DNA from: a virus
Taxonomy: Duplodnaviria > Caudoviricetes
DNA: 64,000 bases
Reading direction: 5' to 3' (one strand)
IMG/VR virus record: IMGVR_UViG_3300032226_000905
Coordinates: 22,276-86,275 of that record
In this document: positions 40,793 to 62,620 of the stretch, piece after piece
How the letters are laid out: each line of letters opens with the position of its first letter
How positions within the stretch are numbered: position 1 is the stretch's first letter
Notes under the pieces: generated by a model
Seen by the model: only the letters and a program-made list of their open reading frames with translations
Database searches by the model: none
What the model was told of the DNA's origin: nothing
Position numbers and translations under genes: made by a program

Positions 40793-41812
40793 ATGAAACT
40801 AAAACTTTTACCATTACTATGTCTTTTTGGAATTTCTACGGCCTACTCTCAGGTTTCAGTATATGGTGTTATCGATACCAGTATCCAATCTTATAATAAC
40901 GGAACTACTAGTTTTACTAGAGCAGCTGACAGTCAATACAGCACGAGTCGTTTGGGATTTCGAGGAACAGAAGACCTCGGAGGCGGACTAAGTGCCTTTT
41001 TTCAAGTGGAAGGTCAATTAAATCCTGCTACAGGTTCTATGGGATCTACTACAGTAACTACCAATGAAATTTTTAATAGAGACGCATACGTTGGTATCAA
41101 ATCTCCCGTGGGATCTATTAGAATGGGACGAACTGATGTGGCTTTGGTAGGAGAGATGGATTTATTTGTATCACAATCTGGAAACTTTGGTATGCATCCA
41201 ACTAACGGTACCAGCGTTGAATTGGGTACCGATCAAAAAAACGTGGTCAGATATGACAGCCCAGTTTATCGAGGATTTCAACTTATAGTAGGTCATGCTA
41301 CTAATAATGTAGGAGCAACCACGGATGCCGTAGCGGATCAAAATGGAGTCGCTCTAAGATATGAAGTAGGCAAACTAAAGGCCGGAGTAGGTCATCAGAA
41401 AAATCAAGGTGTAGGTGTGGCAGCACGTGAGACCACGACTGCAGGATTAGCCTATGATTTTTCTATTTTGTCAGTTGGTACCGCATATGCAAGGGGTGAT
41501 AATTCGACCACTACTGATGTGACTAGTTCGACATGGGTAACCTCAGTAAGGGTACCGTTGCAGCAACAGTATGCTGCACATGTCGTATATGCGCACAGCT
41601 CAAATGGTTCCAGCACTACTGATAACAAAGGCAACGGTGTTACATTAGCAGTTACTAAAAATTTAAGTAAACGCACTGCATTGTATGGCGCCTATACCAA
41701 AGTCTATAATCAGACTAATTCATCAATGGCTATGTTCAACGCTACTTCTGCTCCGGCAACTGCCGGCTTGAATACCAGTTCATTAGGACTAGGAATTAGC
41801 CATACATTCTAA
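40793..41812 (+). CDS. Gram-negative trimeric porin (betaproteobacterial type)
   Basis: Signal peptide, VSVYGVID, SRLGFRGTEDLGGGLSAFFQVE, LSKRTALYG, C-terminal LGISHTF. Confidence 0.93.
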   Translation: MKLKLLPLLCLFGISTAYSQVSVYGVIDTSIQSYNNGTTSFTRAADSQYSTSRLGFRGTEDLGGGLSAFFQVEGQLNPATGSMGSTTVTTNEIFNRDAYVGIKSPVGSIRMGRTDVALVGEMDLFVSQSGNFGMHPTNGTSVELGTDQKNVVRYDSPVYRGFQLIVGHATNNVGATTDAVADQNGVALRYEVGKLKAGVGHQKNQGVGVAARETTTAGLAYDFSILSVGTAYARGDNSTTTDVTSSTWVTSVRVPLQQQYAAHVVYAHSSNGSSTTDNKGNGVTLAVTKNLSKRTALYGAYTKVYNQTNSSMAMFNATSAPATAGLNTSSLGLGISHTF

Positions 41813-41820
41813 TTGATGTT

Positions 41821-42753
41821 ATGTTAAAACTATTGTTGATTTTATTTTTAGGAGTGTCTGCTTTTTCTACAAAGGCAGACACTGCCAACAAATTGCCAAA
41901 AGATGTTAGTATTATAGTTCCGTACGGACCTGGCGGAATTTCAGATGTACAGATAAGACATCTGACACAGTGGCTTTCGAAAAAAGGAATAAATTTAAAT
42001 CCTATTTTTAAACCCGGGGGCAACAGCACATTAGCTGCCAATGAACTGATATCATCAAATAAAGATGGCTCTGTGTTGATGATAAATTCGACTAGTAACT
42101 CGTTATTAGCTGAACAGAGATTAGGTAAGAAGGTGATTGATCCAATAATATCTACTGGCGGTACTGGTCAAGTAATGATAACTTTTTCTGGCAGTAAGTA
42201 TGAAAAATATGAAAATTTTATCAGCGCATTACAGAATTCAGATCCAGATATAAAGATAGGTTGGCATTCAGTAGCTACTGTTTTGAATCTTCACCAACTT
42301 TCTTCTAGGACCGGAGCGTTTAAACCTTTACTGATTCCTTACAAAACTTCTACAGATTCTAGCAGAGATGTTGCAGGACGACACTTACCTTTGGCATTAG
42401 TACCTTTGGCCACAGCCATGCCGTGGTTAGAATCGGGCAAAGTTAAAGTAGTTTTTGGTTTCATGCCAACATCGGGAAAATCTGGATTGCCAACTGATGT
42501 GATCGATTTGAAATCTAGAATTCCATCGTGGACGCATGATGAAATATTTTTTATAGGTTTACCCCCAGACACGGATAAAAAAATCTCGAGAATATGGTAT
42601 CAACTATTGGAAGAATGGTTGAACGATAAAGAAACTGAAGAAGTATTCAAGAAAGCATATTTTGGTAAGGATGTTAAAAATGCAGATCAAATCGTTTCTG
42701 TGATTAAACATCAAGGTACGATGATTAAAAAGTTTAATGTAGACATTAAATAA
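41821..42753 (+). CDS. Tripartite tricarboxylate transporter substrate-binding protein (Bug/TctC-like)
   Basis: Signal peptide, IIVPYGPGGISD, KPGGN, DGSVL. Confidence 0.75.
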   Translation: MLKLLLILFLGVSAFSTKADTANKLPKDVSIIVPYGPGGISDVQIRHLTQWLSKKGINLNPIFKPGGNSTLAANELISSNKDGSVLMINSTSNSLLAEQRLGKKVIDPIISTGGTGQVMITFSGSKYEKYENFISALQNSDPDIKIGWHSVATVLNLHQLSSRTGAFKPLLIPYKTSTDSSRDVAGRHLPLALVPLATAMPWLESGKVKVVFGFMPTSGKSGLPTDVIDLKSRIPSWTHDEIFFIGLPPDTDKKISRIWYQLLEEWLNDKETEEVFKKAYFGKDVKNADQIVSVIKHQGTMIKKFNVDIK

Positions 42754-42756
42754 TAC

Positions 42757-42945
42757 ATGAAGACTGAAATCTCAGGAATGAAAACCAGACTGTGGAAAGA
42801 GGGAGTTTTACCTCCCTTGGATGCCAAGCGTCCTAGATGTAAAGTCCTATACTGCTACGATGGAAAAAATGGTATATTAGATGAGGACGACACAGACTTT
42901 GTGGATTGGCTCATTGTTATAGCCTATGAAACAGAGAAAAAATAA
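42757..42945 (+). CDS. Small hypothetical protein
   Basis: 62-aa ORF coupled to the next gene. Confidence 0.45.
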   Translation: MKTEISGMKTRLWKEGVLPPLDAKRPRCKVLYCYDGKNGILDEDDTDFVDWLIVIAYETEKK

Positions 42946-43718
42946 TGGATCCAAAAATTTACGAATCAAGAGCTAAGTATCATTCTCTACCTGCTGATTT
43001 TCAATATCAGGGAGCTGAAAAATATCAAAGCAATTTAGAATATATCAAAGAAAATTTCAGCAGTTATCATTTTGATAAATGGAAAAAAGAAGAAGAAGGA
43101 GATTGGTATCATCAGTTAGGAAGATTTGAATTAGATCCAGAGATACCAAAAATCATTCCTTGGCTGATTGAAAAATCTAAAGAAGTAGGTTGGACCGAAC
43201 TATCAAAAAAAGGAGCGCATCCGGGCTTTCCGGGAGGAGTGAGTCCTCTCCAGGATCAAGAAGATTACGATTTAGAACAAAGCGGAGTAAAAAATGATTT
43301 TGTTCAAATGGTCCCCGAGCCAGACATGTGTAATATTCCTGCTCTTCAAAAAATGGGTGAATATTGGAAATTTAAAAGACTAAGAACCAGAGTCCATGTA
43401 CAAATGCCAGGTCAGCTGTTTACTTGGCATGTGGATAAACTTTGGCACAGGAATCCGTTAGCCCCGCATAAAATGTCTAGAATGGTTATATTTTTAGAAG
43501 ATTATGAACCGGGACAGATAATGGTCTATGGTAATTCTGTTCTAACACAGTGGCGTGCCGGTGATGTACATATTTTTGACACGTTAAATATTCCTCACTG
43601 TACTGCAAATATGAGTTATAAGCCTAGAGTGGTAATGATTATAACAGCAGTTCGTACAGACGAGACTGATAAAATTCTAAAAGACTGCACCGCAGATACT
43701 ATACATCGATATACTTAA
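42945..43718 (+). CDS. Asp/Asn beta-hydroxylase-like 2OG-Fe(II) oxygenase
   Basis: PGQLFTWHVD, WRAGDVHIFD, IPHCTAN, PRVVM. Confidence 0.8.
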   Translation: MDPKIYESRAKYHSLPADFQYQGAEKYQSNLEYIKENFSSYHFDKWKKEEEGDWYHQLGRFELDPEIPKIIPWLIEKSKEVGWTELSKKGAHPGFPGGVSPLQDQEDYDLEQSGVKNDFVQMVPEPDMCNIPALQKMGEYWKFKRLRTRVHVQMPGQLFTWHVDKLWHRNPLAPHKMSRMVIFLEDYEPGQIMVYGNSVLTQWRAGDVHIFDTLNIPHCTANMSYKPRVVMIITAVRTDETDKILKDCTADTIHRYT

Positions 43719-44745
43719 ATTGTTTTACTAGATATTCATCTACAATTACAGGCTCGAAGTTTGATGAGTCTGTTTTTTTGATAATGTCTTGAAGTAGATA
43801 TTGATTAGTAGTACTTAAACCCCAATTCAGATTTGGAACCACGGCCGCACAATTCAAAAGAACTGAACTAGCAATTCCAGTCTCTGCGATCTTTCCGGAT
43901 AGGTTTACATTTAATCCTAGATCATTTGCCAAGTTTGCAGCTTCGATTATCTTGAAGGGATCACTGAATTTTATCAGTTTTAAATTTACTCCTTGACCGG
44001 TGCCCAGACTCATCATTTCGCGAATATCTTTGCAGGAAAAAATGTCCTGATCTAGACATACACTTATACCCAGATCGAGAGAATTACAGTCTTCAATATA
44101 GATTATATTATCTCTAGAAGTTTCTTGAACAAATGTTTGAAAAGATTCTGTAGAAATGCCGCTGTTTGAATCAACGCATAGATTAGAATCATGTATTATT
44201 TCTCTTAGACGATGTATTAGTAAAATCTCATCGTTGATGTCGTGTTTGCCTATTTTGACTTTAAAAAATCTAGTACCGGACAGGTAACAATCTTCAGCTT
44301 CTTTAAGATCACTGTCTATAGTGTCGTTAGCTAATATTCTTAAACTTTTAAGATCATTTCTGATTTTTTTTCCTAATAGTTGATGTAGTGAAATATTATT
44401 AGCTCTACAATATAAATCTAGTACAGCCGAATACACTGCAAATTTGGCACCAGTATTGCCATAGAACATTTTATCTATGCTAGAGATGATTTTTTTATAA
44501 TCTGAAATTTTTTGATTGATAATAAGGCTTCGAAACCAACGATTGATGATTTCGGCCATTCCAGAAACTGTATCGCCAGTCATTCTGGGGGCTGATGCAG
44601 ATTCACCCCAACCGACCAGTCCATCTGATTCAATTTTGACTATTATATTTTCAGCATGACTTATGCACCTACCAGAAAGAAACATAGGCTTCTTCAGCGG
44701 AATTTTTAAAACAATCGTTTCGAGGTTGGTAACTTTTAAAGACAT
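43699..44745 (-). CDS. Enolase superfamily, MLE / dipeptide-epimerase-like protein
   Basis: GLVGWGES, KVKIG, VDSN, IED, NLKLIK. Confidence 0.8.
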   Translation of the reverse strand: MSLKVTNLETIVLKIPLKKPMFLSGRCISHAENIIVKIESDGLVGWGESASAPRMTGDTVSGMAEIINRWFRSLIINQKISDYKKIISSIDKMFYGNTGAKFAVYSAVLDLYCRANNISLHQLLGKKIRNDLKSLRILANDTIDSDLKEAEDCYLSGTRFFKVKIGKHDINDEILLIHRLREIIHDSNLCVDSNSGISTESFQTFVQETSRDNIIYIEDCNSLDLGISVCLDQDIFSCKDIREMMSLGTGQGVNLKLIKFSDPFKIIEAANLANDLGLNVNLSGKIAETGIASSVLLNCAAVVPNLNWGLSTTNQYLLQDIIKKTDSSNFEPVIVDEYLVKQFKYIDV

Positions 44746-44755
44746 TTAAAGTAGT

Positions 44756-45937
44756 TTATTGAACGAAATCTAGAATCTTAAATCCTTTAGTTTTTAATTT
44801 TCTTAGTCCTGCATTGTAATTTGTTTTTTCTAGAAGCAAAGAAGTGTCTATATCGCTTTGAATACTTTTAACTGTTGAGCTATAGACATCTCTAGCCTCT
44901 GCGAAATCAGACATTTCATACATCCAATAATACCAATCACTGCGATCCACATTTGGTTTTCCTACTTGGAAAGTTGAGGGGTTCCAAGAATCTCGATACA
45001 GAATATCCTTGAAAAGTTTATTCTGCAATTTTAAAAGTCGATTTACTCTCAATGCTGAATTTTGATCATCTTTATTGATAAGACAATTTTTAAATTTTTT
45101 GTCAATGGCGACATTTAACGCAGTTTGATATGCCTGTTCCATGGGCAGGATAGGAAAATCCGCAGTCCAATAAAACGGTTCTTTAGTTCCTAACTCTGGA
45201 TTTACGATCAACATATCCATAGCATGATCTAAAAAATGAAAATATATTCCATCGGAATTTTCTGATAGAACCGGTTTTTCTATTCCGAAAATGTGAGCAG
45301 TATTTTCTGGTTTATATCTAGCGTCGAATTTATCTATATTTGCAGACATAAAAAAGACTGCCGGAGTATAATTAGAATAGAAATAATTATTGTGATCTAA
45401 TTTTTTATTCATAGTTCCTATGATTTTTTTAGACATGAGATTCTCTGCATAATCAACTATGGTAATCTTGATCTCTGGATTAGAGTTTGATATCCTTTTT
45501 AAAACAGGTTCGATGGCATAGTCCCATTCGCTTAGAGCATTTCTAGCAGAAGTGTCGTTGGCATTAGGTGTATAAAATTTTTTGTCAGATAAAATTTTAG
45601 GCCATTTAACTACTATTTCGTCTAATTTTATTTTATGTTTTAAAAAAGTATGTAGTATATTGTAACTGTCCGATCCTCCGCTGAAGTGTAAAACTAAATG
45701 CGAATATCGATCTCTCAGTTGTTGGGCTCGTTGTTTGTAAAGATCTGGCAAAGGAATTTTTCCTAACAGAGATCTATCAAAATTTTCCCAGATATGATTA
45801 TGATAGTAAAAGAAAATTTCATCGGTCTTCAAAATTGAGGCATATTTAAAGGCTTCGAATTTTCTAAGAAACCCTCGGCCATTGACAATCCAGCAACCAT
45901 ATTTTGAAAGAAGTTTGGGATATTTGAGATGATCCAT
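44756..45937 (-). CDS. PP-loop (asparagine-synthase-like) ATP pyrophosphatase, type A1
   Basis: YKQRAQQLRDRY..LVLHFSGGSDS, FGIEKP, FYWT. Confidence 0.75.
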   Translation of the reverse strand: MDHLKYPKLLSKYGCWIVNGRGFLRKFEAFKYASILKTDEIFFYYHNHIWENFDRSLLGKIPLPDLYKQRAQQLRDRYSHLVLHFSGGSDSYNILHTFLKHKIKLDEIVVKWPKILSDKKFYTPNANDTSARNALSEWDYAIEPVLKRISNSNPEIKITIVDYAENLMSKKIIGTMNKKLDHNNYFYSNYTPAVFFMSANIDKFDARYKPENTAHIFGIEKPVLSENSDGIYFHFLDHAMDMLIVNPELGTKEPFYWTADFPILPMEQAYQTALNVAIDKKFKNCLINKDDQNSALRVNRLLKLQNKLFKDILYRDSWNPSTFQVGKPNVDRSDWYYWMYEMSDFAEARDVYSSTVKSIQSDIDTSLLLEKTNYNAGLRKLKTKGFKILDFVQ

Positions 45938-45945
45938 AGGACAAA

Positions 45946-45975
45946 TATTTAAGCATTACTGTGTGGGTATAAATA
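45946..45975. promoter_or_regulatory. Divergent late-type promoter pair
   Basis: Minus TAAATA at 45946-45951; plus TATAAATA at 45968-45975. Confidence 0.6.
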
Positions 45976-45980
45976 TTATC

Positions 45981-46436
45981 ATGATAATTTTAGAAGGTCT
46001 TTTTTATTTTTTCTTATGGACTTTAATGATCTATTGGATACATAGACTGTCTCACAGTTATAGAATTCCAATACTTTCAAACTTCCATAGAGAACATCAT
46101 AAATTTGTAGCGAATAACAAGATAACTTGGAAGTTTAATAACTTATTTTTATTCAACGACAATTGGCCCAGCACAATAGATTTCTGGTTGACTGAGGTTA
46201 TTCCTACAATAATTTTTTCTGTTATAACAGGACAGTACTGGTTATTGTTGGCATTTTACATTTATGCCGCTTGCTTACAAGAGTGGATAGAACACAACGA
46301 AAAATTCAATGCATATCCACTGCATACTTCGGGTCAATGGCATATGCTTCATCATACAAGTTATCCCTGCAATTTTGGCATAGGAACACCGCTATGGGAT
46401 TATATGTTTAGAACTAATAAAAAATTATCACTGTAA
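45981..46436 (+). CDS. Sterol desaturase / fatty acid hydroxylase superfamily membrane protein
   Basis: His boxes HRLSH, HREHH, HMLHH; NFG...WDYMFRT. Confidence 0.85.
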   Translation: MIILEGLFYFFLWTLMIYWIHRLSHSYRIPILSNFHREHHKFVANNKITWKFNNLFLFNDNWPSTIDFWLTEVIPTIIFSVITGQYWLLLAFYIYAACLQEWIEHNEKFNAYPLHTSGQWHMLHHTSYPCNFGIGTPLWDYMFRTNKKLSL

Positions 46437-46772
46437 AAACATTAAATCAGTTATTTCAGTCAGTTCTCTAGATTTTTTCCATGTTCTGTTCTGCCAAAAA
46501 GATTTAGAATAATTTACGATAGGATGATTATCGAATTCTTCGTAGCTGATTCGATCTGCAAATACAGTTGTAATTTCTAATTTATTACCATCATTAGATA
46601 ATATCAGTGATCGATAAAGTATTTTCTTTTGATCGATCATTTCTTTGACCAGTTTTCTAACGCCGGTGCCTTGAGAATCTTTTAATAGATGTTTCCAGTT
46701 TCTATAGTAGAAATCGTCTATAGAAGTAGCATTTAAATTCTCTTCACAATACGTAATTTTAAGTAATATCAT
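46428..46772 (-). CDS. Small protein, possible dimeric alpha/beta-barrel
   Basis: LEITTVFADRISYEEFDNHP resembles 47532-47834. Confidence 0.45.
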   Translation of the reverse strand: MILLKITYCEENLNATSIDDFYYRNWKHLLKDSQGTGVRKLVKEMIDQKKILYRSLILSNDGNKLEITTVFADRISYEEFDNHPIVNYSKSFWQNRTWKKSRELTEITDLMFLQ

Positions 46773-47512
46773 AGATCTAACTGTTGAACAATGTAATCAG
46801 GTAAAGCAGAATAATGTAGTCTAGCAGATTTGCAATACTGACTAATGAATTCTTTTAGTTCTTCGAAATTAGTAAAATACTTAGACATATCGTGACTATC
46901 GTTGTAACCGCTATTAAAAATTATATCATGATCGAAGTAATCATTTATTTTAGAATACCGAACAGAATCAGATAGGTCTTCTAAATAAACTTTGTGTATA
47001 AAATTCTTATGGAATGAGTATTCATTTTCTAGCTGCCAATACTGAAAAGAAAAATTATTAAAATAATCAATGATTCTTCTATCTTCTCGATTTGATCTAC
47101 GAAATGTAAATGCTTCAAATCTCGTCGAGGATCCATCGTAATTTGAATTCTCTATAGCTAATAAAAAACTTCCAAAGGTCTTCCAAAAATTTTTCCTTAG
47201 TACTATGAATACATCTAATTGATTATTTTCTATGATATTTTTAAAATCTCTATGCCAAATTAGAAAAGTTTTAAATCCCATGTATTCTTTATTTTGATGA
47301 TGTTTCATGTCTATCATTTTTTTGACGATAGCATCGTGATCATACAAATGACTTTGAAAAAACTGAGAAGAATAACTTATCTGTTTGAGATTAAATGGTT
47401 CGAAACTACGGAACGGAGGTATCCAAATTTTAGATATTTGTGATAGCGTGTTACAGAAGAATTTTGTGCCGCTTCTTGGAATGCCGAGAACGACAAAGTT
47501 TTTATTTGACAT
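46769..47512 (-). CDS. Sulfotransferase (Stf0-like)
   Basis: GIPRSGTKF PAPS-binding loop, EPFN, GFK, LRKN. Confidence 0.75.
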   Translation of the reverse strand: MSNKNFVVLGIPRSGTKFFCNTLSQISKIWIPPFRSFEPFNLKQISYSSQFFQSHLYDHDAIVKKMIDMKHHQNKEYMGFKTFLIWHRDFKNIIENNQLDVFIVLRKNFWKTFGSFLLAIENSNYDGSSTRFEAFTFRRSNREDRRIIDYFNNFSFQYWQLENEYSFHKNFIHKVYLEDLSDSVRYSKINDYFDHDIIFNSGYNDSHDMSKYFTNFEELKEFISQYCKSARLHYSALPDYIVQQLDL

Positions 47513-47531
47513 GTACTACCAAACTTACAAT

Positions 47532-47834
47532 TTAAATACTCGAAGTAGTGGTTTCTTTGGTGATGCTATTGGTGTTGTTGTACATATCAAATAGATCCTG
47601 TTGGAATCTTATATCAGGATCTGCAAGATAGTTATTATACTCTTCTTCATTATTCCAGATCTGTCTAATTTCAAGTGTTAGAGGATCTAGTTCTTGGTAC
47701 GATCTTCGATTGTACATGTCGTGTCTTAGCTGCGCTTCTTTGTAATTAGGGCTGACCTTTTCGGCAAAATATTGGCTGTGCCATGCCAAGGAGGGCAACG
47801 GTTTTCTAAAAATTAAAGTAACGATAAAAGGCAT
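47532..47834 (-). CDS. Small protein, possible dimeric alpha/beta-barrel
   Basis: LEIRQIWNNEEEYNNYLADP. Confidence 0.45.
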   Translation of the reverse strand: MPFIVTLIFRKPLPSLAWHSQYFAEKVSPNYKEAQLRHDMYNRRSYQELDPLTLEIRQIWNNEEEYNNYLADPDIRFQQDLFDMYNNTNSITKETTTSSI

Positions 47835-47858
47835 GATCTTTCCTAGTTTATGTTCTGT

Positions 47859-47926
47859 TATTTATCACGAAAAATTTAGGGCCGCGCCAACTAGAATTAT
47901 TTGTAGGTCTAACACTCATATAAATA
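47859..47926. promoter_or_regulatory. Divergent late-type promoter pair
   Basis: Minus TAAATA at 47859-47864; plus TATAAATA at 47919-47926. Confidence 0.6.
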
Positions 47927-47935
47927 TTTGTCATT

Positions 47936-48436
47936 ATGCTGGTAAAATATCTCGAAAATATAGAAAATTTTCCTAAATTAGCCGAAGAAATCATGGAATT
48001 GATTTCAAAAGTGCAGTTCAAGGATAATCAAATTTCATGTCAAGGTCTTACAGCTGATCAAGATGACTGGCATTCGAGTGTGGGATCTTTAAAAAAATTA
48101 GATGATCAAAACGAAGAAAACTATATCCATATCAATAAATCTTTACAGGGCACAGTTATAGAATCTGTTATAACAAGATTTGGCGGATATCGAGCAAGGA
48201 TAATGTCAATGGGTCCTAGAAAATGCTACAGTGTACATGCAGATCCAACTCCTAGAATCCATGTTCCTATAATTACCAATGACCAGTGCTGGATGACTTG
48301 GCCGTATGATAATTATTCTCAGCATCTAGTAGAAGGTCGAGCATTTTGGACCGATACTACTAAACAACATTCAGCATATAACGGACACGAGATGTTAGAA
48401 AGAATACATCTAGTGATGTGTGTGAAAATAAATTAA
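47936..48436 (+). CDS. Asp/Asn beta-hydroxylase-like 2OG-Fe(II) oxygenase
   Basis: RARIM, YSVHAD...RIHVPI, QHSAYN, RIHLV. Confidence 0.82.
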   Translation: MLVKYLENIENFPKLAEEIMELISKVQFKDNQISCQGLTADQDDWHSSVGSLKKLDDQNEENYIHINKSLQGTVIESVITRFGGYRARIMSMGPRKCYSVHADPTPRIHVPIITNDQCWMTWPYDNYSQHLVEGRAFWTDTTKQHSAYNGHEMLERIHLVMCVKIN

Positions 48437-49659
48437 ATCAGATTTTTCTTAAATTTTCCAAGATAATAAAGTTTACTGTAACAAGGTCGATACTCCCAAT
48501 TTTCTTTGTTAATTTCAACTCCGGGCAATCTCGCAGGTTCAGTGATTTTTAAAAAATCTTGATTAACATTGTTATACAAAAAGTCCATGCCGCGCCTAAA
48601 TGTTTTGTAGCCATTAGTATTGATAAAGTCTGTCATCCAATAATCCCATTCTTGAAAAGTCGCCTTTTCTGGTTTGTTACATTGAAACGTGCTTAGATCG
48701 TAATCAGGGTAAATTATTGCTTTGATGCATGCCTCATATGCTGTACGATTAAGATTATTCGTCTGCCACCAAAAATTTAACATATAAGATAATCTTTGAT
48801 TATCTTTCAGTTCGAACCATCTTTTGATTTCGTGGCATTGTTTGATTATGAGCTGCGGCAGATCAGGACTCCAAAAAAATAGTTCTACATCTATATTATC
48901 GAATCCGTTATTGACTGTGGCATGAAGAGCGGAATGCACCGGTCTATCTACAAAAATTAAATTTACATCTTCTTTTTGAAATGTTACTCTAGGTTTATCG
49001 GTACCAAAAATTATTCCAACCTTTTTACCTTTATCAAAATTTCTCAGCGTCTCTATATTGGTTGAATCGGAGTATCTTACTATGCAGCCAGGAGTAACGT
49101 AATCACCGACCCAGTATATAAAGTTTTCATCCCAATAAATATTTTTATCAATTATATCTTTACTAAAGTCATGTAATGTTATTTTTGTTTTTGGACTTAC
49201 GCTCGCTAGCCAATTTAAGATAGGTTTGGCCGCATATTCAAATTCGCTGTATTCGTTAGCTGCGTTAAAATTTAGTTTATTAGGTTTCCATTTATTTGTT
49301 CCTGCTCCCGGATATCTTACGATTACTTCGTCTAAGAAAAGACCTTGCTGTATAAAACTATAAAGAACAGTATTGCTATCTGAACCGCCGCTGAGATTTA
49401 ATATAAGATAGTCATATTTTTCTCTAAGCTGTTTGGCCCGAATATGATAATAACTTTTTACAGTTCCTGGAGGTTCGACGGTCCAATCATATTTCGAAAA
49501 CGCATCATCGTTGAAATTCCATTTTAAATCTTTATATCCTAGATTCAATTTGGAAGCCTCTAATAAAGCCGATGCCTTATTCCAGAATATTTGTCCATTT
49601 ATTTCATACCATCCCAAAGAGGGATTCTTAGACATGGTGGTGTGGTCGAGTTTAATCAT
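48433..49659 (-). CDS. PP-loop ATP pyrophosphatase, type A2
   Basis: RAKQLREKYDYLILNLSGGSDS, FGTDKP, FFWSPD; TATAAATA at 49674-49681. Confidence 0.75.
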   Translation of the reverse strand: MIKLDHTTMSKNPSLGWYEINGQIFWNKASALLEASKLNLGYKDLKWNFNDDAFSKYDWTVEPPGTVKSYYHIRAKQLREKYDYLILNLSGGSDSNTVLYSFIQQGLFLDEVIVRYPGAGTNKWKPNKLNFNAANEYSEFEYAAKPILNWLASVSPKTKITLHDFSKDIIDKNIYWDENFIYWVGDYVTPGCIVRYSDSTNIETLRNFDKGKKVGIIFGTDKPRVTFQKEDVNLIFVDRPVHSALHATVNNGFDNIDVELFFWSPDLPQLIIKQCHEIKRWFELKDNQRLSYMLNFWWQTNNLNRTAYEACIKAIIYPDYDLSTFQCNKPEKATFQEWDYWMTDFINTNGYKTFRRGMDFLYNNVNQDFLKITEPARLPGVEINKENWEYRPCYSKLYYLGKFKKNLI

Positions 49660-49697
49660 AATTTTTTACAATGTATTTATATATTGATAATTACAGT

Positions 49698-50099
49698 ATG
49701 AATAAAATCATCGTTGAAAAGAGTAATGTATCAAGTAGAATGACTGTGTTTCGTTTAGGCACTGAAGTCCTAACGGTAATCGATAATGAAGAAATTCCAG
49801 TTTGGTGCGTATCACAAACTTATTCTAGATTCACTACCAATTTTAAAGAATTGTTTCAGTACGCTGTTTCTCATCAAGAAGAAAAAAAATTATATCAATT
49901 TTTTATTGTGTCCAATGATCTCGATACAAAGTTAGATTTTATCTCAGAAAAATATAATTGTTATTTAGAACATCAAGTTAAAAAAAATTCTCTGACCGGT
50001 TACGAAAACATTGATCATGATGTATTAGAATATACTACAACATCAAATGATAGATTTATACATCTTTGGGTACTAAAGAATGAATATCGAACTATCTAA
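49698..50099 (+). CDS. Hypothetical protein
   Basis: 133 aa, coupled to a PP-loop gene. Confidence 0.5.
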   Translation: MNKIIVEKSNVSSRMTVFRLGTEVLTVIDNEEIPVWCVSQTYSRFTTNFKELFQYAVSHQEEKKLYQFFIVSNDLDTKLDFISEKYNCYLEHQVKKNSLTGYENIDHDVLEYTTTSNDRFIHLWVLKNEYRTI

Positions 50100-51012
50100 G
50101 AATAATCACATGGTATGGGGATATAATGATATCCCCTGGTCTAATAGAAAAAATTTATACGATCATTTTTTTATAAAATACGGCAAAATTAAATCTGTTC
50201 CGAAAAATTTCAGAGAAGCTTGTATAAACACAGCTAAAGAAATAGCAGAACGTGCCAAAAATCTTAATAAGAAGCCGTTAATTTATTATTCGGGAGGAAT
50301 AGACAGTGAATCTATTATTGCAGCATTTATTGAAGCAGGATTAGATTTTTCTATCGCACATATTAAATATAGTCCTAGATTTAATCAACACGAGTATTTC
50401 TATGTTAAAAAATTTATTAAAAAGTATGATTTAAACCTTTTGGAGTTTGATGTAAATCCTATAGAATTTCTCTCAACTGAAAAACTTTTTTCCAAAGCAG
50501 TTAGAGATAACGCAAGACTTATCGAAACTCATCTGCTGACCAGTATCACTGAAAAAGTAAAAAATGATTTTTTTCCTATTTTAGATCATCCAGGAACTAT
50601 GCTATATAGAAAAAATCCTAACTTGAATGAAAAAAGTGAATGGGCTTGGAAAGATTTCGAACATCTAATGTTTTTTTACAATCATTGCATAAATGAAAAT
50701 ATGGAGGCATGTCCTAGTTTTTATCATTGGAGTCCTGAGATTATGTTAGCATTCTTATTAGATCCTATTACAGTAGATTTGGTTACCAATAAGACTTATG
50801 GAAAAATAACTAACAGGACTTCGACCTTGTTGATGTATAACAATGCTTTTCCAGAATATCAATTTGAAGAACGCCCCAAATACGGAGGGTTCGAATACAT
50901 TCCGAAAACATTAATAAACGATTTAAATAGAAAATTAAATGCACACACACATTATGATAGGCATAGTGGTCAGGCCTATGATTATAATGAATTAGTGAAG
51001 ATGTTATCATGA
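50080..51012 (+). CDS. PP-loop ATP pyrophosphatase, type B1
   Basis: FREACI, YYSGGIDSE, FYHWSPEIMLA. Confidence 0.75.
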   Translation: MNIELSKNNHMVWGYNDIPWSNRKNLYDHFFIKYGKIKSVPKNFREACINTAKEIAERAKNLNKKPLIYYSGGIDSESIIAAFIEAGLDFSIAHIKYSPRFNQHEYFYVKKFIKKYDLNLLEFDVNPIEFLSTEKLFSKAVRDNARLIETHLLTSITEKVKNDFFPILDHPGTMLYRKNPNLNEKSEWAWKDFEHLMFFYNHCINENMEACPSFYHWSPEIMLAFLLDPITVDLVTNKTYGKITNRTSTLLMYNNAFPEYQFEERPKYGGFEYIPKTLINDLNRKLNAHTHYDRHSGQAYDYNELVKMLS

Positions 51013-51572
51013 TACGACAGATTCTTTTATCCGATTTAGAATCTTTACAAGAATTTTTTGAATCGGCCACTACTAGTATGGACCATCGACCCGATACTTT
51101 CTCTATGGTACCTTATTATCTGTCTACAGATGAATATTATAGAGGGTTTGCGAAATTTGACGATACTGGAAAAATACTCAGTGCCTGTTTTATGAGAGAA
51201 CTAGTAGAACAAAAAGTACAGGTATTGGATTTTATTGTTGCGAGAAAGGATGTTTCTATCTTTAGAAATCTCGTAGGAGAAGTTGTAGACTATGCTATCT
51301 GTTTTGGGGAAAAGAAAGGAATATATAGATTTTATACATTTCTTACCAATGACATGTTAAACACAGTCGATGTACTCAAAAAGAAAAATCTAGTATTCAC
51401 ATGGAGAGAGCGATACGATACTTATGTGGATGAAATTATAGAACCACAATGTTTTTCTCGTTACTATCTACACTGGGTCTATCTTATGAATACCACGGTT
51501 AGAAAGCATAGAAAGATTGTTCGTCATCATCACCTAAAGCCAGACCACTACGATAGAACTACAGAATCTTGA
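51009..51572 (+). CDS. Possible GNAT-fold protein
   Basis: MIRQILLSDL start and beta/helix pattern; weak. Confidence 0.4.
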   Translation: MIRQILLSDLESLQEFFESATTSMDHRPDTFSMVPYYLSTDEYYRGFAKFDDTGKILSACFMRELVEQKVQVLDFIVARKDVSIFRNLVGEVVDYAICFGEKKGIYRFYTFLTNDMLNTVDVLKKKNLVFTWRERYDTYVDEIIEPQCFSRYYLHWVYLMNTTVRKHRKIVRHHHLKPDHYDRTTES

Positions 51573-52270
51573 TTTACAAAAGGCAAAAATTTTTGGTAAT
51601 CTATTTTGCCAAACACTCGAATAGTGATCCTAATGCCATCAACCATGCCTACACCGTGCCAGGCACTGTCATTAAACAACATAGCATTTCCTGAAACTTT
51701 GTGTATTTCGCCAGTGTCGAATGAATGTATTTTCATAGGAACTCTGCCAGTATCAGGAATAATACTTAGACCAAAACAGGCATCGTAGTCCTTGCTCAAC
51801 CTGTCCTCGCCCCATCCGTAATCTCTATGAGTGGCGAAGAATGTATTTTCAGTAATGAATACACGTATGCAGCCAATGTGTTCGTATGGAAGGCTTTCTA
51901 GGCAAAATCTTAGATAAGGAGTTTTTTCTATAATTTCTTCTCGCCACCGCCATCCTTGAACATCTAATTTTTTTGTGATATCAAACCTATTGACATTTTT
52001 TTTATTATCTATATGATATCTCATATAAAAAATATATTGTCCTCTTAAATCCTTGCTGATGTGCTGATGTTGTTTGGTTTGATAATCTACCCGATCATAA
52101 AGATCTAATGACTCTGAAGCAAATATCTGTCCTTGTTTTGCGGCCTGCACATTGAAATCATATGGCGGAGAATGGTTCCAGAACTTTTTTGTAGCTAGTA
52201 TTTCTTCTTTGATTTTGTTATAATCAAAGTCTAGATCTAAACTAGCAGCAAGAATATTTTTAATGTCCAT
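51548..52270 (-). CDS. 2OG-Fe(II) oxygenase-like protein
   Basis: IRVF...FATHRD, LFNDSAWHGV, RITIRV. Confidence 0.72.
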   Translation of the reverse strand: MDIKNILAASLDLDFDYNKIKEEILATKKFWNHSPPYDFNVQAAKQGQIFASESLDLYDRVDYQTKQHQHISKDLRGQYIFYMRYHIDNKKNVNRFDITKKLDVQGWRWREEIIEKTPYLRFCLESLPYEHIGCIRVFITENTFFATHRDYGWGEDRLSKDYDACFGLSIIPDTGRVPMKIHSFDTGEIHKVSGNAMLFNDSAWHGVGMVDGIRITIRVFGKIDYQKFLPFVNQDSVVLS

Positions 52271-52327
52271 CAATTATTTAATTTATCAGCGATCAACCCG
52301 TTGATAAATATCCTAAACAATATCATT

Positions 52328-53131
52328 ATGAACACTCGACATCTTCTTGATTTTTTTAATGCTAAAAATCTAAATCTGCTACAATATGCTACTATAACAG
52401 CATTTGTTGTAGCAGCCATCTCTTTTTTCTATATTAAATTCAGTTGGTCAATGTTGGGACTAACTGTGCTGATGTATTATCTGATATTTGGGTTTGGAGT
52501 TAGCGCCACTCTGCATCGAGCCATTACGCATAGATCTATAGTGTTTCATCCTTGGATAGAAACATTTGGAAAGTTCATAGCGATGATGGGGGGTACAGGA
52601 TCAGTAATTAGCTGGGTGATGACCCATAGAGCCCATCATAAGTATTCAGATACAGATCTAGATCCGCATCCTCCTTGGAAGATATCTAAGACACTAATTG
52701 GTCAATATCCTAAAGTGGATACTCGCGGCATGCGAAGATATGCAGACAGTTCTTTTAATAGATTTACTCATAGATATTATTTCCTAGTTTTATCTCTATA
52801 TGCTATAGCATGGAGTTTACTAGGAATAGAGTTTTTCTTCTACGGGTTTCTTTATCCTGCATTGTTGACCATCATTGCCAGTAACGTAGTCAACAAGTAT
52901 TCTCACTCCGATCTAATCTTTAACTATCGTAGACATGATACCAAAGATACTAGCCAGAACAGCCCTATAGTGGGACTGATGACCTGGGGCGAAGGTTGGC
53001 ATAACACACATCATCGTTATCCGGGTCGTGCTAGATTTGCCATGTCTTCTTGGGAAATTGATCTAAGTTTCTATCTAGTAATACTATTAGAGAAACTAGG
53101 ACTAGCCAAGATCAAGCCTCATAATCCCTAA
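52328..53131 (+). CDS. Delta-9-type fatty acid desaturase
   Basis: HRAITH, WVMTHRAHHKYSDTDLDPH, GEGWHNTHH; TM helices. Confidence 0.92.
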   Translation: MNTRHLLDFFNAKNLNLLQYATITAFVVAAISFFYIKFSWSMLGLTVLMYYLIFGFGVSATLHRAITHRSIVFHPWIETFGKFIAMMGGTGSVISWVMTHRAHHKYSDTDLDPHPPWKISKTLIGQYPKVDTRGMRRYADSSFNRFTHRYYFLVLSLYAIAWSLLGIEFFFYGFLYPALLTIIASNVVNKYSHSDLIFNYRRHDTKDTSQNSPIVGLMTWGEGWHNTHHRYPGRARFAMSSWEIDLSFYLVILLEKLGLAKIKPHNP

Positions 53132-53810
53132 TCACTGCATATTCTTTGTAAATCTTCGCGCTGCGTTCGACGAGATCTCTGTGCCTATCTAAATCTAAAT
53201 CTCCCATTACATACAACAGTAATTTTTGATTTGCATCAGCTTCATCATTTCCGTGGGCACAGCTATAACTACCCATAACCCAGCCGGGGCTAGATTCAGG
53301 TAAGGTGCAGTAGATTTTTCCTAGGGTATTTGTATAAACATAAAAACTGTCTTTGTGCAGAGCTCCATCTAATAACAGTCTATAAAAACAGGGGTCATTA
53401 TCTCTGTAATAGTTCTTTTCCTCTTGATCGACATCGGCTCTGAGATCTAGATGCATAGGTACCGATCCGTTAGAACTTATAGCAGTGATATATTTAAATC
53501 TGCGGAATGGCAAGTTGAGTTTGATATAATCGATCAATCTCGGACACAGTGTCTGCGCTTCGCTGGTCCAATGCCAATCAAAATTTTCTATCTGTGCTTC
53601 GTAGGGATTTTCCACGTTGTCGTTAGGAACATGTATGCGGAAACTGTTCCATGCATAGAGATGATGTTTTTTCTGTTCTTCTAATTCTAGTCGCTGTTCT
53701 TCACTGACCTGGGGTACGAAAGTATAGTAATCTTTTATCCGGTCAAGAGTGAGTTCTTTAGGCGGTAACGGTAGGTCCAGCGGAGTCCATAATATGTTAT
53801 TCACCGCCAA
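53112..53810 (-). CDS. 2OG-Fe(II) oxygenase-like protein
   Basis: VPMHLD, YRLLL, CAHG. Confidence 0.6.
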   Translation of the reverse strand: MAVNNILWTPLDLPLPPKELTLDRIKDYYTFVPQVSEEQRLELEEQKKHHLYAWNSFRIHVPNDNVENPYEAQIENFDWHWTSEAQTLCPRLIDYIKLNLPFRRFKYITAISSNGSVPMHLDLRADVDQEEKNYYRDNDPCFYRLLLDGALHKDSFYVYTNTLGKIYCTLPESSPGWVMGSYSCAHGNDEADANQKLLLYVMGDLDLDRHRDLVERSAKIYKEYAVIRDYEA

Positions 53811-54651
53811 TCTCCGGATGAGCTAATCCCTTGAATAATAGATCTATAGGATGTATCTTACCGAAGAATTCATTGACAGTGTAACTGTCATCTTCTTGAT
53901 TATAGTCTAGCCAGGGGCTGAATCCTAGAACAAGATGTATACGTTTCTTCATAGATTTTGCTGTAGCATAGACTCTGTGTGCGATATGCGTGTCTGTAGT
54001 GTAAATATTTCCCACAGGTGTGGTCATAGGCGTCTGCCCTTCGGATTGAAACATAAAAGTTTCATCTCCTACTAGGGGTATATTCAATCTTAGATTTTCA
54101 TAGACAGGTTCGTCCTTATGCCATAGAAATTCTTCACCCACGCGATCATAATAGTCTGCATCTAAGACACCTATTCGTCCTCTTGTAGGAGTAAGTCTGA
54201 ACCCTTTAATAAACTCTCGTAGACTTGAATTTGTCACTGCAGGCGATAGGTGCCGGAATCCATAGGTATCAAAATAGGTATGTTTAATAGAATTAAATCG
54301 AGAAGTATTGGCCCAATAGAACTCTCCGGGTGCATTAGTTTTAGTACCTAAAGTGCTTTGATTAGGATCTGTATTTTCACGGAGATTAGGATTATAGACT
54401 AGGCTCAAACCTCCGTAGGCTCGAGCATCACCTTTTTTAGTTTGCCATCCCTTGACTCCGTTTTGATCTAGACAGTCTTCTGTAATTTGTCGTAGCCTGT
54501 CGATGTTTAATCTATGAGGAATACTGATCCAATTATCTGTGGGTACCGAACATTGTAGATCATGATAGGCTTCTTTGAAATTTATCTGCGAATCGATCCA
54601 TGAAAATATAGTTCGATCTTCGGGACAGTCCTTGACAAAAAATTTATTCAT
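53797..54651 (-). CDS. Asp/Asn beta-hydroxylase-like 2OG-Fe(II) oxygenase
   Basis: WHKDE...RLNIPL, DTHIAHRV, RIHLVLG. Confidence 0.78.
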   Translation of the reverse strand: MNKFFVKDCPEDRTIFSWIDSQINFKEAYHDLQCSVPTDNWISIPHRLNIDRLRQITEDCLDQNGVKGWQTKKGDARAYGGLSLVYNPNLRENTDPNQSTLGTKTNAPGEFYWANTSRFNSIKHTYFDTYGFRHLSPAVTNSSLREFIKGFRLTPTRGRIGVLDADYYDRVGEEFLWHKDEPVYENLRLNIPLVGDETFMFQSEGQTPMTTPVGNIYTTDTHIAHRVYATAKSMKKRIHLVLGFSPWLDYNQEDDSYTVNEFFGKIHPIDLLFKGLAHPEIGGE

Positions 54652-55246
54652 AAGGTTGAAAGAATCCCCTTAGTTGAGCGTTTTTTAAATACTCAGGATT
54701 ATTTATAGCCACAAACTGCCTACAACTGTTCGGGGGATTATCCATACATTCGCAGACATTATATCTTCCGGGCATGATTACAAATTTCTGTTCTGATACT
54801 GTATTTGCTAATCTAATAATTTCTTTAAAACTTTTTAAATAATTGCCCTCTCTGGTAATCATGACTGCTTTAATCTCTGGCATAGTTTTTAAAACTTTGA
54901 GTTGAGATTCTAAAACAATAGGACTAAATTTTATAGAATCAGATCTCCATTTTGTTAGACCCGAAGTTCTATATTTTGGACTGATCCAAAATCTCGTAAG
55001 AGCTCGAACGATGGTTTCTCCCCATCGATCTGCTCGCCTTTCAACGCCTCCGAATGAAATAATTTCTTCATTGTATAAAACAGCGGTAAAATTTAAGAAT
55101 TTTTTTAAATCTATATCGAGATAATTCTCGTAAAGCTCATCTTCTCGGCAGGCTTCTTTGAGGTACTGCATACATTGATTCCATTGATCTTCGTATTCTC
55201 TAGAATGCTTTGTTATATCAATAATTTTTACATCTGATGAGTTCAT
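54644..55246 (-). CDS. GNAT-fold acyltransferase-like protein
   Basis: IISFGGV, RFWISPKYRTSG (motif A-like). Confidence 0.55.
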   Translation of the reverse strand: MNSSDVKIIDITKHSREYEDQWNQCMQYLKEACREDELYENYLDIDLKKFLNFTAVLYNEEIISFGGVERRADRWGETIVRALTRFWISPKYRTSGLTKWRSDSIKFSPIVLESQLKVLKTMPEIKAVMITREGNYLKSFKEIIRLANTVSEQKFVIMPGRYNVCECMDNPPNSCRQFVAINNPEYLKNAQLRGFFQPYE

Positions 55247-55247
55247 A

Positions 55248-55259
55248 TTAAATATTTAA
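55248..55259. promoter_or_regulatory. Palindromic bidirectional late-type box
   Basis: TTAAATATTTAA in the 16-nt gap between divergent genes. Confidence 0.55.
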
Positions 55260-55262
55260 TCT

Positions 55263-56201
55263 ATGTACGACATCACTCAAAATTTCCAAAATCCTTTAGA
55301 TGAAAATTTTTCCTACGGGTACGACGGAAACCTGTATAATTTACGTAGTTCTAACAAATCAGAATTTCAATGTTATTATAAACAAGCCAAATATATTCCT
55401 ATTTCTTTTAAAGAAGAATGCATAAAGGTTTGTGAGAAAATCAGTGATTACGCAGAATCTGTAGGTAGAATACCTATGGTGTTGTTGAGTGGTGGGCTGG
55501 ACAGTGAAGTAGTTGTGAGAAGCTTTATTGAGTCAGGAAGACCTTTTCAAATAGTTTCTAATAGATTTAACAATCAGTTGAACGATCACGAAATTCAATA
55601 TGTAAAAAAGTTTTCAATTAAACACAATTTAAAAATTAAATATATAAACTTAGATATTACAAGTCTTTTGACCAGTGATAGATATTTAAAAATGGCTGAA
55701 ATATCTAGGTGTCCTTATGCAGAAATGTTGCCGACCATGGATCTTATTGATCGAGTTTACTTTGAAATGAACGGTGTTCCTGTTTTAGGCAATGGAGATT
55801 TTTATGCTTCAAAAATTGATAATGCCTGGACGTATATCGAATTTGAATATATTCTAGCATGGATGAGATATATCATTGATAAGAAAATAGCAGCAGCTAT
55901 AAATTTTTTCCAGTATACTCCAGAAATAGTATTATCTATGGCCTTAGATCCAATAGTGCATGATGCAATCATAGGAAATCAATATCCCAATGTTCGTCAG
56001 GCCAAATACGCAGTTTACAGAAAATATTGGAATGATATTGAACTAAGAACAAAATATAACGGAGCAGAATCAATACAATCGCTATGCGACGAAATAAACG
56101 AAAAATATCTTGCAGAAAATAAAATTTATACATCTAAATGGTCCAAACCATTATATCAGTTTCTTAAAAACATGATGCCGAGAGTAAACGAGATAAATTA
56201 A
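55263..56201 (+). CDS. PP-loop ATP pyrophosphatase, type B2
   Basis: FKEECI, LLSGGLDSEVV, FFQYTPEIVLS. Confidence 0.75.
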   Translation: MYDITQNFQNPLDENFSYGYDGNLYNLRSSNKSEFQCYYKQAKYIPISFKEECIKVCEKISDYAESVGRIPMVLLSGGLDSEVVVRSFIESGRPFQIVSNRFNNQLNDHEIQYVKKFSIKHNLKIKYINLDITSLLTSDRYLKMAEISRCPYAEMLPTMDLIDRVYFEMNGVPVLGNGDFYASKIDNAWTYIEFEYILAWMRYIIDKKIAAAINFFQYTPEIVLSMALDPIVHDAIIGNQYPNVRQAKYAVYRKYWNDIELRTKYNGAESIQSLCDEINEKYLAENKIYTSKWSKPLYQFLKNMMPRVNEIN

Positions 56202-56204
56202 AAT

Positions 56205-56909
56205 ATGACAAACACGATCGTACCTCCCGGTGTTAGCGGAAGATCCCAATCATATGATCCTAAAAATGTTAGTAATGAAACCTTGGCCAATGAATTAGTA
56301 TTGGCTAATTTGGGATCCTTTGAACCGTTAAAAATAAAAATCGATATCGGTCAATTTATGCGAGAGATAGAACCTTACAAAAATGCATGGGTGGATTATC
56401 TTCCAAGAACAGATAGACCAAATAATAGAAAATCTTTAGTTTTAACAAATTTAATCGGTAAGAGTCATACAGATAATCCTAGTCTTGCTCAGGCCAGCTA
56501 TGCTGCTAATAGACGCCTAAGCGAAACTGAATTTAGTTATCCTACAGAAGTCTACAATGCCTGTAGTAGTCTTAGAAGTTTTCTTGATATGTGGCAACCT
56601 TTAGGAAGAACTTTTTTAGTAAAATCTGACACTGGCGGTTATTTTGTTCCTCATAGAGATCATCCCACGATGCCGCGCGATGTTTTTAGACTGATTGTTT
56701 TTCTAAATAACTGCGGCCCCTATGACTACGATTGGTGGATGGATGATCGAAAAGCTCAGATAGAACATGGAAGAGTATATTATGTCAACACTAGACTTAC
56801 TCATCGAACTATCAGTTGGGTCAATGATAGTATACATTTAATATTAAATGTTCCCATGACTTCTGAAAATGTTGCTAAAGTGATTGCTAATTTACAACAC
56901 AGTCATTAG
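56205..56909 (+). CDS. Asp/Asn beta-hydroxylase-like 2OG-Fe(II) oxygenase
   Basis: GGYFVPHRD, GRVYYVNT..THRT, SIHLIL. Confidence 0.8.
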   Translation: MTNTIVPPGVSGRSQSYDPKNVSNETLANELVLANLGSFEPLKIKIDIGQFMREIEPYKNAWVDYLPRTDRPNNRKSLVLTNLIGKSHTDNPSLAQASYAANRRLSETEFSYPTEVYNACSSLRSFLDMWQPLGRTFLVKSDTGGYFVPHRDHPTMPRDVFRLIVFLNNCGPYDYDWWMDDRKAQIEHGRVYYVNTRLTHRTISWVNDSIHLILNVPMTSENVAKVIANLQHSH

Positions 56910-56920
56910 TTTTTCCAAAT

Positions 56921-57472
56921 TTATTTTTTAAGGACTACATAAGAGCTAAATTTTTCGTAGCTTCTTTTTAGTAATTCTAAATGTCTCTCTTTGTTTAGCC
57001 ATCCTCGTATATAAATGGTCGTTCTGCTTTCATCTTCTTTGACTCTGTGTATAGCTGAGGTTGAATTTAAAATATATCCGCACGGTACTTTTGGCAGAGC
57101 CGCAACAACATATTCTTTTCCGTTAAATGTTTCTAGACTGTCAATTTCGCCTTTAACGACGAATCTATACCCCGCAGGCTCTGTATCTAATATATGTTCA
57201 TATTCTCCATTAGAAAAATTCATGGCAGCATAAACATCAACATGCGGACCAACTTCTTTTTGCTGTATCTTGTATTGAATATTTGTAATTTTATCAAATG
57301 GTAATTGATTTAATATTTTATCAAAATTATTTTTTTTGATAACTTCGTCGCTGAGTAAAGTTGAATTCCAATATGGATTATATTTAGAAACAACAGGCGT
57401 GCCGATAAACGAATCAAATTCGATATTTTCTATTTCTATGTCTAGAGGACAAAATAAAATTTCATTTAACAT
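56921..57472 (-). CDS. 2OG-Fe(II) oxygenase-like protein
   Basis: VGPHVD, YRFV, NST.AIHRV. Confidence 0.62.
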   Translation of the reverse strand: MLNEILFCPLDIEIENIEFDSFIGTPVVSKYNPYWNSTLLSDEVIKKNNFDKILNQLPFDKITNIQYKIQQKEVGPHVDVYAAMNFSNGEYEHILDTEPAGYRFVVKGEIDSLETFNGKEYVVAALPKVPCGYILNSTSAIHRVKEDESRTTIYIRGWLNKERHLELLKRSYEKFSSYVVLKK

Positions 57473-60418: not shown

Positions 60419-60447
60419 ATTATAATCTCAAACGTCGATGCTGTCAA
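60419..60447 (-). promoter_or_regulatory. Sigma70-type promoter
   Basis: TTGACA-17nt-TATAAT. Confidence 0.85.
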
Positions 60448-62545: not shown

Positions 62546-62620
62546 TGGTTGCGGGGGACAGAATCGAACTGTCGATCTCCAGGTTATGAGCCTGGCGGGT
62601 TACCTCTTCCCCACCCCGCG
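62546..62620 (-). tRNA. Initiator tRNA-fMet (CAU)
   Basis: CGCGGGG...CCCCGCA-ACCA; C1:A72 mismatch; G11-C24; loop CUCAUAA; T-loop UUCGAUU. Confidence 0.93.

Follow-up and report, generated by a model that had tools for sequence, protein, structure and literature searches.

Several PP-loop enzymes built on the synthetase domain of AsnB are known to form amides. The asparagine synthetases (AsnB/ASNS) combine this domain with an N-terminal nucleophile (Ntn) glutaminase domain. Enzymes of the beta-lactam synthetase group are AsnB-like proteins that have lost the use of glutamine and make lactams or unusual amides, and lasso-peptide cyclases, which are likewise AsnB-like and adenylating, need no glutamine to turn a side-chain carboxylate into an amide. 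Here we analyzed four PP-loop genes in a 64,000-nucleotide stretch of viral DNA (hereafter the window), taken from the 3' end of an 86,275-bp IMG/VR record (IMGVR_UViG_3300032226_000905; Caudoviricetes). With moderate confidence, we propose that the four genes encode stand-alone, glutaminase-less amide ligases of the AsnB/beta-lactam synthetase domain type; they fall into two distantly homologous families (types A and B).

The record is 23% complete (CheckV) at this length and is therefore a fragment of a jumbo-phage genome. Baseplate and tail-fibre-like genes and one tRNA with a CAU anticodon (62546-62620) are encoded in the window, and its clamp loader shares 54% identity with the clamp loaders of PA5oct-like Pseudomonas jumbo phages. 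The four PP-loop genes sit in an accessory island of low GC content (~33%) at ~43-62 kb.

Two families of PP-loop proteins

The four open reading frames (ORFs), together with the type A and type B motifs quoted for them in a first-pass annotation of the window, were all recovered at their positions:

44756..45937, (-) strand: type A paralog A1, 393 amino acids; SGGSDS at residues 86-91, FGIEKP at 217
48433..49659, (-) strand: type A paralog A2, 408 amino acids; SGGSDS at 90-95, FGTDKP at 218, ELFFWSPD at 259-266
50080..51012, (+) strand: type B paralog B1, 310 amino acids; SGGIDS at 71-76, central motif DHPG
55263..56201, (+) strand: type B paralog B2, 312 amino acids; SGGLDS at 76-81, GNGD at 176-179, FFQYTPE at 215-221, R262-x-K264

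The patterns RA.QLR..Y..L.L..SGGSDS and FG..KP are common to A1 and A2, and F.E.CI and SGG.DSE to B1 and B2. Six-frame translation of the window contains SGGxDS four times, once in each paralog ORF. A1 and A2 are 28% identical over their full length (E 2e-33) and B1 and B2 27% identical (E 1e-33); A1 was also recovered by the type A profile (E 1.8e-112). The central motif that reads DHPG in B1 is GNGD in most of the type B family.

Between the two types, BLASTP and shallow profiles aligned the PP-loop alone. Deep profiles of 236 type A and 298 type B sequences could be aligned across 270 columns (probability 96%, E 4e-9), superposing the PP-loops, FGTDKP of type A on LGNGDF of type B, and ELFFWSPD of type A on NFFQYTPE of type B. 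Because the deep profiles superpose it, the C-terminal motif that had been described as shared by all four proteins is real, although it is one residue shorter in type A than had been claimed (F-x-[WY]-[ST], against F-x-x-[WY]-[ST] in type B). The two residues after it are P-[DE] in A2, B1 and B2 but A-D in A1. The named clusters nearest to A2 in the ESM atlas are viral type-B-like clusters. Judged by the profile alignment, types A and B are distant homologues.

The proteins begin with MDHLKY, MIKLDH, MNIELS and MYDITQ and have ~60-85 residues ahead of the PP-loop. Neither an N-terminal Cys nor a CxxC occurs in any of the four, in agreement with the earlier statement that both a glutaminase domain with N-terminal Cys and the QueC Zn motif are absent.

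Fold and family assignment

AlphaFold models of A2 (predicted local distance difference test score, pLDDT, 87; predicted template modelling score, pTM, 0.88) and B2 (pLDDT 94.4, pTM 0.92) were compared with representative chains by VIA-align Z, and Foldseek was also used. SGGxDS sits after strand 1 and before a helix in both models, which places them in the PP-loop superfamily, and the top structural matches of both types were all PP-loop enzymes. B2 aligned with human asparagine synthetase (9b6c_A) at Z 15.9 (root-mean-square deviation, rmsd, 4.3; 272 residues aligned), with E. coli AsnB at Z 15.0, beta-lactam synthetase at 14.0, carbapenam synthetase at 12.8 and TsnB9 at 11.3, and with every other PP-loop enzyme at Z 10.5 or less. 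For A2, the asparagine synthetases gave Z 11.2 (AsnB, 1ct9_A; rmsd 5.2, 291 residues aligned) and 10.3, beta-lactam synthetase 9.3, TsnB9 8.9 and carbapenam synthetase 8.0, and other PP-loop enzymes 7.2 or less. In this comparison with known PP-loop folds, which the first-pass annotation had proposed, the AsnB group was closest by VIA-align Z; Foldseek alone was weaker and less specific.

The phage proteins resemble AsnB/ASNS in SGGxDS and in the order of motifs (PP-loop, G-x-G loop, strand-P-[DE], R/Q-x-K), but differ from them in size (310-408 versus 554 amino acids) and in the absence, from all four, of the Ntn glutaminase domain with Cys1. The structural alignments start at model residues 1-5, and therefore short N-terminal beta-hairpins overlie part of the AsnB N-domain. 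PF00733 matched neither the four proteins nor the six-frame translation of the phage record, and weak matches to it were found in some type B homologues. Shallow profiles of both types aligned with E. coli AsnB in the PP-loop alone. A deep type B profile aligned with AsnB residues 146-509 at only 62% probability (E 7e-5), and this alignment put G-N177-G on G-E348-G and R262-x-K264 on R447-x-K449. As modelled in A2 and B2, the two types share the synthetase-domain fold of AsnB, while all four proteins lack the glutaminase domain and the profile match of that family.

Beta-lactam synthetase, carbapenam synthetase and TsnB9 are the next-best structural matches of both types and are 9-15% identical to the phage proteins. 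They differ in keeping a full-length inactive N-terminal domain and in belonging to bacterial antibiotic clusters, and the Tyr-Glu catalytic dyad of this group could not be mapped on the phage proteins. No solved lasso cyclase was among the structural matches, and Pfam detected no B-protease, RRE or precursor gene near the phage genes, in an island where many ORFs have no annotation.

Two other assignments, to QueC and to the WbuX/PseA type, were rejected. B1 and B2 score 25.7 and 22.5 bits with the Pfam QueC model, just at its threshold, and only the PP-loop third of that model, positions 3-75 of 210, is matched; the Zn cysteines of QueC are absent, the fold similarity is low (about Z 8 for QueC and TilS against B2, compared with about 15 for AsnB), and the gene context is unrelated. 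TilS chains reached Z 7.8-8.8 with type B and 5.6-7.0 with type A, and no TilS match was obtained in Pfam or NCBIfam. The WbuX/PseA-type sugar amidotransferases (PDB 8wex) are likewise stand-alone PP-loop proteins of ~380-400 amino acids in variable islands. They were set aside in view of the missing NCBIfam match (TIGR03573) and a Z of 5.2 between 8wex_B and type B; moreover, island Pfam scans, in which several ORFs had no match at all, revealed no HisH/HisF-like partner.

Pfam, NCBIfam and PHROGs contain no family for type A, and PHROGs none for any of the four proteins or their partners. A sequence search of solved structures returned nothing relevant for type A and weak generic PP-loop matches for type B. 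Full-text search of the literature gave no description of either family, the sole related item being tctA as an auxiliary gene in SUP05 viruses. The view that these PP-loop enzymes lie outside the characterised families was thus borne out for every curated family searched. As for the suggestion of a new amide- or lactam-forming family, the fold is indeed nearest to the amide- and lactam-forming AsnB group, but two virus-restricted families are present rather than one.

Distribution

Each of the two families is large and almost confined to viruses. Type A comprises 453 protein clusters in a word-indexed search, all named 'hypothetical' and none with a Pfam domain, and its relatives occur on 423 IMG/VR contigs, the longest of 354 kb. 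For type B, 125 close clusters were found, and 1738 representatives of 50%-identity clusters matched at E <=0.001 (1067 at E <=1e-10). No homologue of either type was detected by tblastn in the isolate phages of INPHARED.

Among 185,579 species genomes, type A patterns were present on four contigs, all from freshwater metagenome-assembled genomes (MAGs), assigned to Polynucleobacter, Methylococcaceae, Nanopelagicales and Haliscomenobacter. Several further gene families of the phage loci also occur on three of these contigs; the fourth, from Nanopelagicales (L152), has a TctC-like gene and A alone in common with the loci. The Polynucleobacter contig carries the closest homologue of type A in a cellular bin. 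A type B profile had no full-length match, and three partial PP-loop matches, in 401 Pseudomonadota genomes. No fused long form of type A was found, which, given the search method, is weak evidence.

Genomic context of type B

Gene neighborhoods were compared in 145 sequences (144 related loci and the window), with ORFs from a crude caller and families from single-linkage BLASTP clustering. More than half of the type B genes (38/67) are directly adjoined by a partner of ~150-215 amino acids, with overlaps of 4-20 nt. The relevant genes of the window and of two related loci are:

51009..51572, (+) strand: partner f9 (G1), 187 amino acids; overlaps the B1 stop by 4 nt; probably GNAT-like
54644..55246, (-) strand: partner f75 (G2), 200 amino acids; divergent from B2; weak Acetyltransf_1 match (E 0.017)
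52301..53131, (+) strand: f4, desaturase-like membrane protein; Pfam FA_desaturase E 6.6e-15; His boxes HRAITH, HRAHH and HNTHH
47936..48436, (+) strand: f19, AspH/LpxO-like hydroxylase; Pfam Asp_Arg_Hydrox E 3.5e-8
49671..50099, (+) strand: f176, ORF of 142 amino acids; overlaps the B1 start, with the same arrangement in L010
L001:15516-15746 and L051:5600-5824: carrier protein genes between a GNAT-like gene and B

Translational coupling links type B to genes of the Gcn5-related N-acetyltransferase (GNAT) type, and we propose that it acts with these acyltransferases and, in some phages, with a carrier protein. In 18 loci, an f9 gene is found immediately downstream of B and overlaps it every time, and the B proteins with this partner represent seven lineages at 60% identity (median pairwise identity 30%). 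G1 of the window has a homologue in the partner from L001 (E 2e-7), and its look-alikes in the ESM atlas are viral 'N-acetyltransferase domain' clusters (score 0.96). G2 is a member of f75; this family is a homologue of f15 (hhalign 97%), which is found upstream of B elsewhere. Of 39 partner sequences, five matched Acetyltransf_1 (best E 7.8e-5), with recurrent weak matches in f15, f75 and f9. The GNAT assignment is clear for a further partner family, f130 (E 5e-11), and the B-adjacent family f21 matches the GNAT-type domain of malonyl-CoA decarboxylase (E 5.9e-8).

Natural fusions join the two proteins in both orders, GNAT-B in P0278, P0287 and P0272 and B-GNAT in P0332; Acetyltransf_1 was matched in the GNAT-B fusions with E 8e-12 (P0278) and 4e-11 (P0287), and the fused GNAT-B gene is followed by an AspH-like gene. 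The earlier observation that both B genes neighbor a GNAT-like gene is therefore real and supported by these fusions, but the two partners come from different families: G1 and G2 have no detectable similarity to each other, and hhalign found no link between f9 and f15.

A co-directional module of f19 (AspH-like), f15, B, f9 and f4 (FA-desaturase) recurs in at least eight loci with tight spacing (f15-B, -4 nt; B-f9, overlapping with a median of -16 nt; f9-f4, -8 to +8 nt). Altogether, f4 is within four genes of 32/67 B genes. The window has B1-f9, then one insert on the opposite strand, then the f4 desaturase, the three His boxes of which we take to be typical of Delta9 desaturases. In L001, L002 and L051 (two distinct sequences), a carrier protein of 74-76 amino acids is encoded between f15 and B; it contains the phosphopantetheine motif LGLDSLD and matches PP-binding (E 1.4e-6).

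In another phage lineage, an unannotated family of ~195 amino acids (f11) and a metallophosphoesterase (f16) directly follow B, in the order f21-B-f11-f16. Their counterparts in the window (39775-40335 and 59789-60394, both on the (-) strand) are at least 10 kb away from the B genes.

Genomic context of type A

The conserved neighbors of type A are TctC/Bug-like (f3) and DctP-like (f2) solute-binding proteins and sometimes TctA. The corresponding genes, and other neighbors of type A in the window, are:

41821..42753, (+) strand: f3, TctC/Bug-like binding protein with signal peptide; BugE/Bug27 E 6e-9, Pfam TctC E 1e-3
40793..41812, (+) strand: Omp32-like outer-membrane porin; PDB Omp32 (2fgr, 1e54) E 1.7e-21 over the full length
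L088:8826-9776, (+) strand: example of a DctP-like gene beside type A
43699..44745, (-) strand: enolase-superfamily protein of the dipeptide/N-acyl-amino-acid epimerase type; MR_MLE_N and MR_MLE_C; singleton family
45963..46436, (+) strand: FA_hydroxylase-family membrane protein (E 2.3e-15); family in three loci only
42945..43718, (+) strand: f42, 257 amino acids, no Pfam match; within four genes of 13 type A genes

Of 119 A genes, 85 have a TctC-like or DctP-like gene at most three genes away (77/98 with full flanks; 13 of 18 lineages at 50% identity), compared with only 2/67 B genes. The f3 family adjoins A 36 times, often overlapping it (median gap -2.5 to 9 nt), and 87% of its members have a hydrophobic N-terminus. 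The DctP-like family is well supported (Pfam E 1e-48, PDB E 1e-26), and a signal peptide was detected in none of its 66 members; these proteins may represent an unusual case of a transporter binding-protein fold put to work in the cytoplasm. In several loci (e.g., L088, L100, L103, L106 and L115), A paralogs alternate with binding proteins, and TctA directly follows A in four.

The porin and TctC-like genes of the window are 2 kb from A1. They are separated from each other by 8 nt (40793-42753) and look like an organic-anion uptake pair. This Omp32-like porin/TctC-like pair suggests a betaproteobacterial host.

The first-pass annotation had placed type A beside an epimerase, a hydroxylase or an oxygenase. 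These genes do exist, and the epimerase-type protein matched PDB 2p88 and L-Ala-D/L-Glu epimerase with E of about 4e-22, but they are singletons or rare in other loci. A tryptophan-halogenase-like gene (flavin-dependent; Pfam E 2.8e-52) was observed between two A paralogs in L142 (3397-5010) and also in L139 and L144.

Other genes of the island

By eye, at least eight island ORFs contain HxD...H-type motifs (42945-43718, 51548-52273, 53112-54651, 56205-58266, 61713-62288). Pfam supports only 47936-48436 (AspH-like) and 61713-62288 (2OG-FeII_Oxy_5) among them, and the set looks like a diverged expansion of cupins or 2-oxoglutarate (2OG) oxygenases. Two further genes did not recur in the other loci examined:

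60444-61688, (-) strand: ATP-grasp ligase; ATP-grasp_4 E 5.8e-12
46769-47512, (-) strand: weak sulfotransferase-like ORF

Predicted activities and alternative explanations

By analogy with the AsnB fold, ATP would bind at SGGxDS in both types and a free carboxylate of the substrate would be adenylated with release of pyrophosphate. A nitrogen nucleophile would then attack the acyl-AMP to yield an amide; this nucleophile could be free ammonia or an amine that belongs to the substrate itself or to a co-substrate. Substrate classes can be proposed by the same analogy together with gene context. The coupling of type B to GNATs, a carrier protein, AspH-like proteins and a desaturase suggests that its substrate is most likely a carboxylic acid that is small and acylated and may be lipid-like or bound as a thioester. 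Its subsequent hydroxylation and/or desaturation would suggest that the metabolite is acylated and possibly lipid-like. Uptake genes (porin, TctC-like protein, DctP-like protein and sometimes TctA) surround type A, which most likely converts an imported carboxylate or amino acid in the cytoplasm.

Several observations weigh against the amide ligase proposal or against its details. In low-confidence profile alignment, the position of the catalytic Glu348 of AsnB is occupied by Asn in type B and by Thr (T220) in type A. Beyond the PP-loop, the similarity of type A to AsnB is non-significant by sequence, even with deep profiles. The GNAT domains resemble generic acetyl-CoA types and not known lipid N-acyltransferases, and no carrier-protein gene was found in the window. 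The gene calls and families used for the context analysis depend on the crude ORF caller and single-linkage clustering. Finally, type A occupies a conserved genomic position and the loci come from related phages, so that the synteny may partly reflect inheritance or a shared insertion hot-spot.

An alternative, which we regard as rather unlikely, is that the substrate is a peptide or protein: type A and/or type B would adenylate an Asp/Glu side chain or a C-terminus of a peptide, a virion protein or a host protein in the manner of lasso cyclases, yielding an amide or isopeptide, and the GNAT, AspH-like, 2OG oxygenase, ATP-grasp and sulfotransferase-like proteins of the island would be tailoring enzymes. 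The established AsnB-like fold of lasso cyclases is common to the phage proteins, and an AspH-like gene recurs with type B, also behind the fused GNAT-B gene; enzymes of the AspH family hydroxylate Asp/Asn in proteins. The island also contains the ATP-grasp gene and at least two Pfam-supported AspH-like/2OG oxygenase genes, with further oxygenase-like ORFs recognized by eye and without a Pfam match, and related loci add radical-SAM and methyltransferase genes. However, the Pfam scan of the island, in which many ORFs stayed unannotated, revealed no leader peptidase and no RRE/PqqD-like domain, no conserved precursor-like small ORF was found, and small molecules agree better with the tight linkage to transport proteins, a carrier protein and a membrane desaturase.

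It is improbable that a thiol, or some nucleophile other than nitrogen, captures the acyl-AMP, as in loading of the phosphopantetheine arm of the adjacent carrier protein, or that a dicarboxyl-thioester such as malonyl-acyl carrier protein (malonyl-ACP) is amidated. AsnB-like amidotransferases of polyketide pathways are reported to amidate such thioesters. In three loci the PP-binding carrier protein gene is directly upstream of B, and the match of f21 to the GNAT-type domain of malonyl-CoA decarboxylase would also agree with such chemistry. On the other hand, the carrier protein was found in only few lineages and not in the window; no ketosynthase or phosphopantetheinyl transferase was seen, although no search was aimed at the latter, and the AsnB-like group is not known to use thiol capture.

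A role in nucleobase or tRNA modification, either as a divergent QueC or as a TilS-type modifier of the phage tRNA(CAU), is very improbable: the marginal Pfam QueC scores of B1 and B2, the presence of this tRNA and the fact that no canonical queC occurs in the 86-kb fragment (only 23% of the genome, so that queC may lie elsewhere) are outweighed by a match confined to the PP-loop section, the missing Zn cysteines, a fold far closer to AsnB, and conserved type B partners (GNAT, desaturase and AspH-like proteins) that are not queuosine genes.

Returning to the proposed amide ligases, a wider scheme can be outlined, which we offer tentatively and consider doubtful. Large aquatic phages might possess two modules. 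One would be an operon for a carrier protein, GNAT, ligase, AspH-like protein and Delta9 desaturase, by which the infected cell would form a new amide-containing lipid or acyl metabolite. In the other, a phage porin, a TctC-like binding protein (in some phages with TctA) and a cytoplasmic DctP-like protein would supply an organic acid to a type A ligase, and expansion of the paralogs would pair ligases with binding proteins for different substrates.

Implications

Types A and B represent two abundant, virus-restricted families that had remained unannotated, and their predicted chemistry and conserved partners make them testable. Provided that these gene contexts mirror function, large freshwater phages would make their own small-molecule or lipid amides and would have a dedicated system to import organic acids and convert them. 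Phage auxiliary metabolism would then have a wider range than is known at present.

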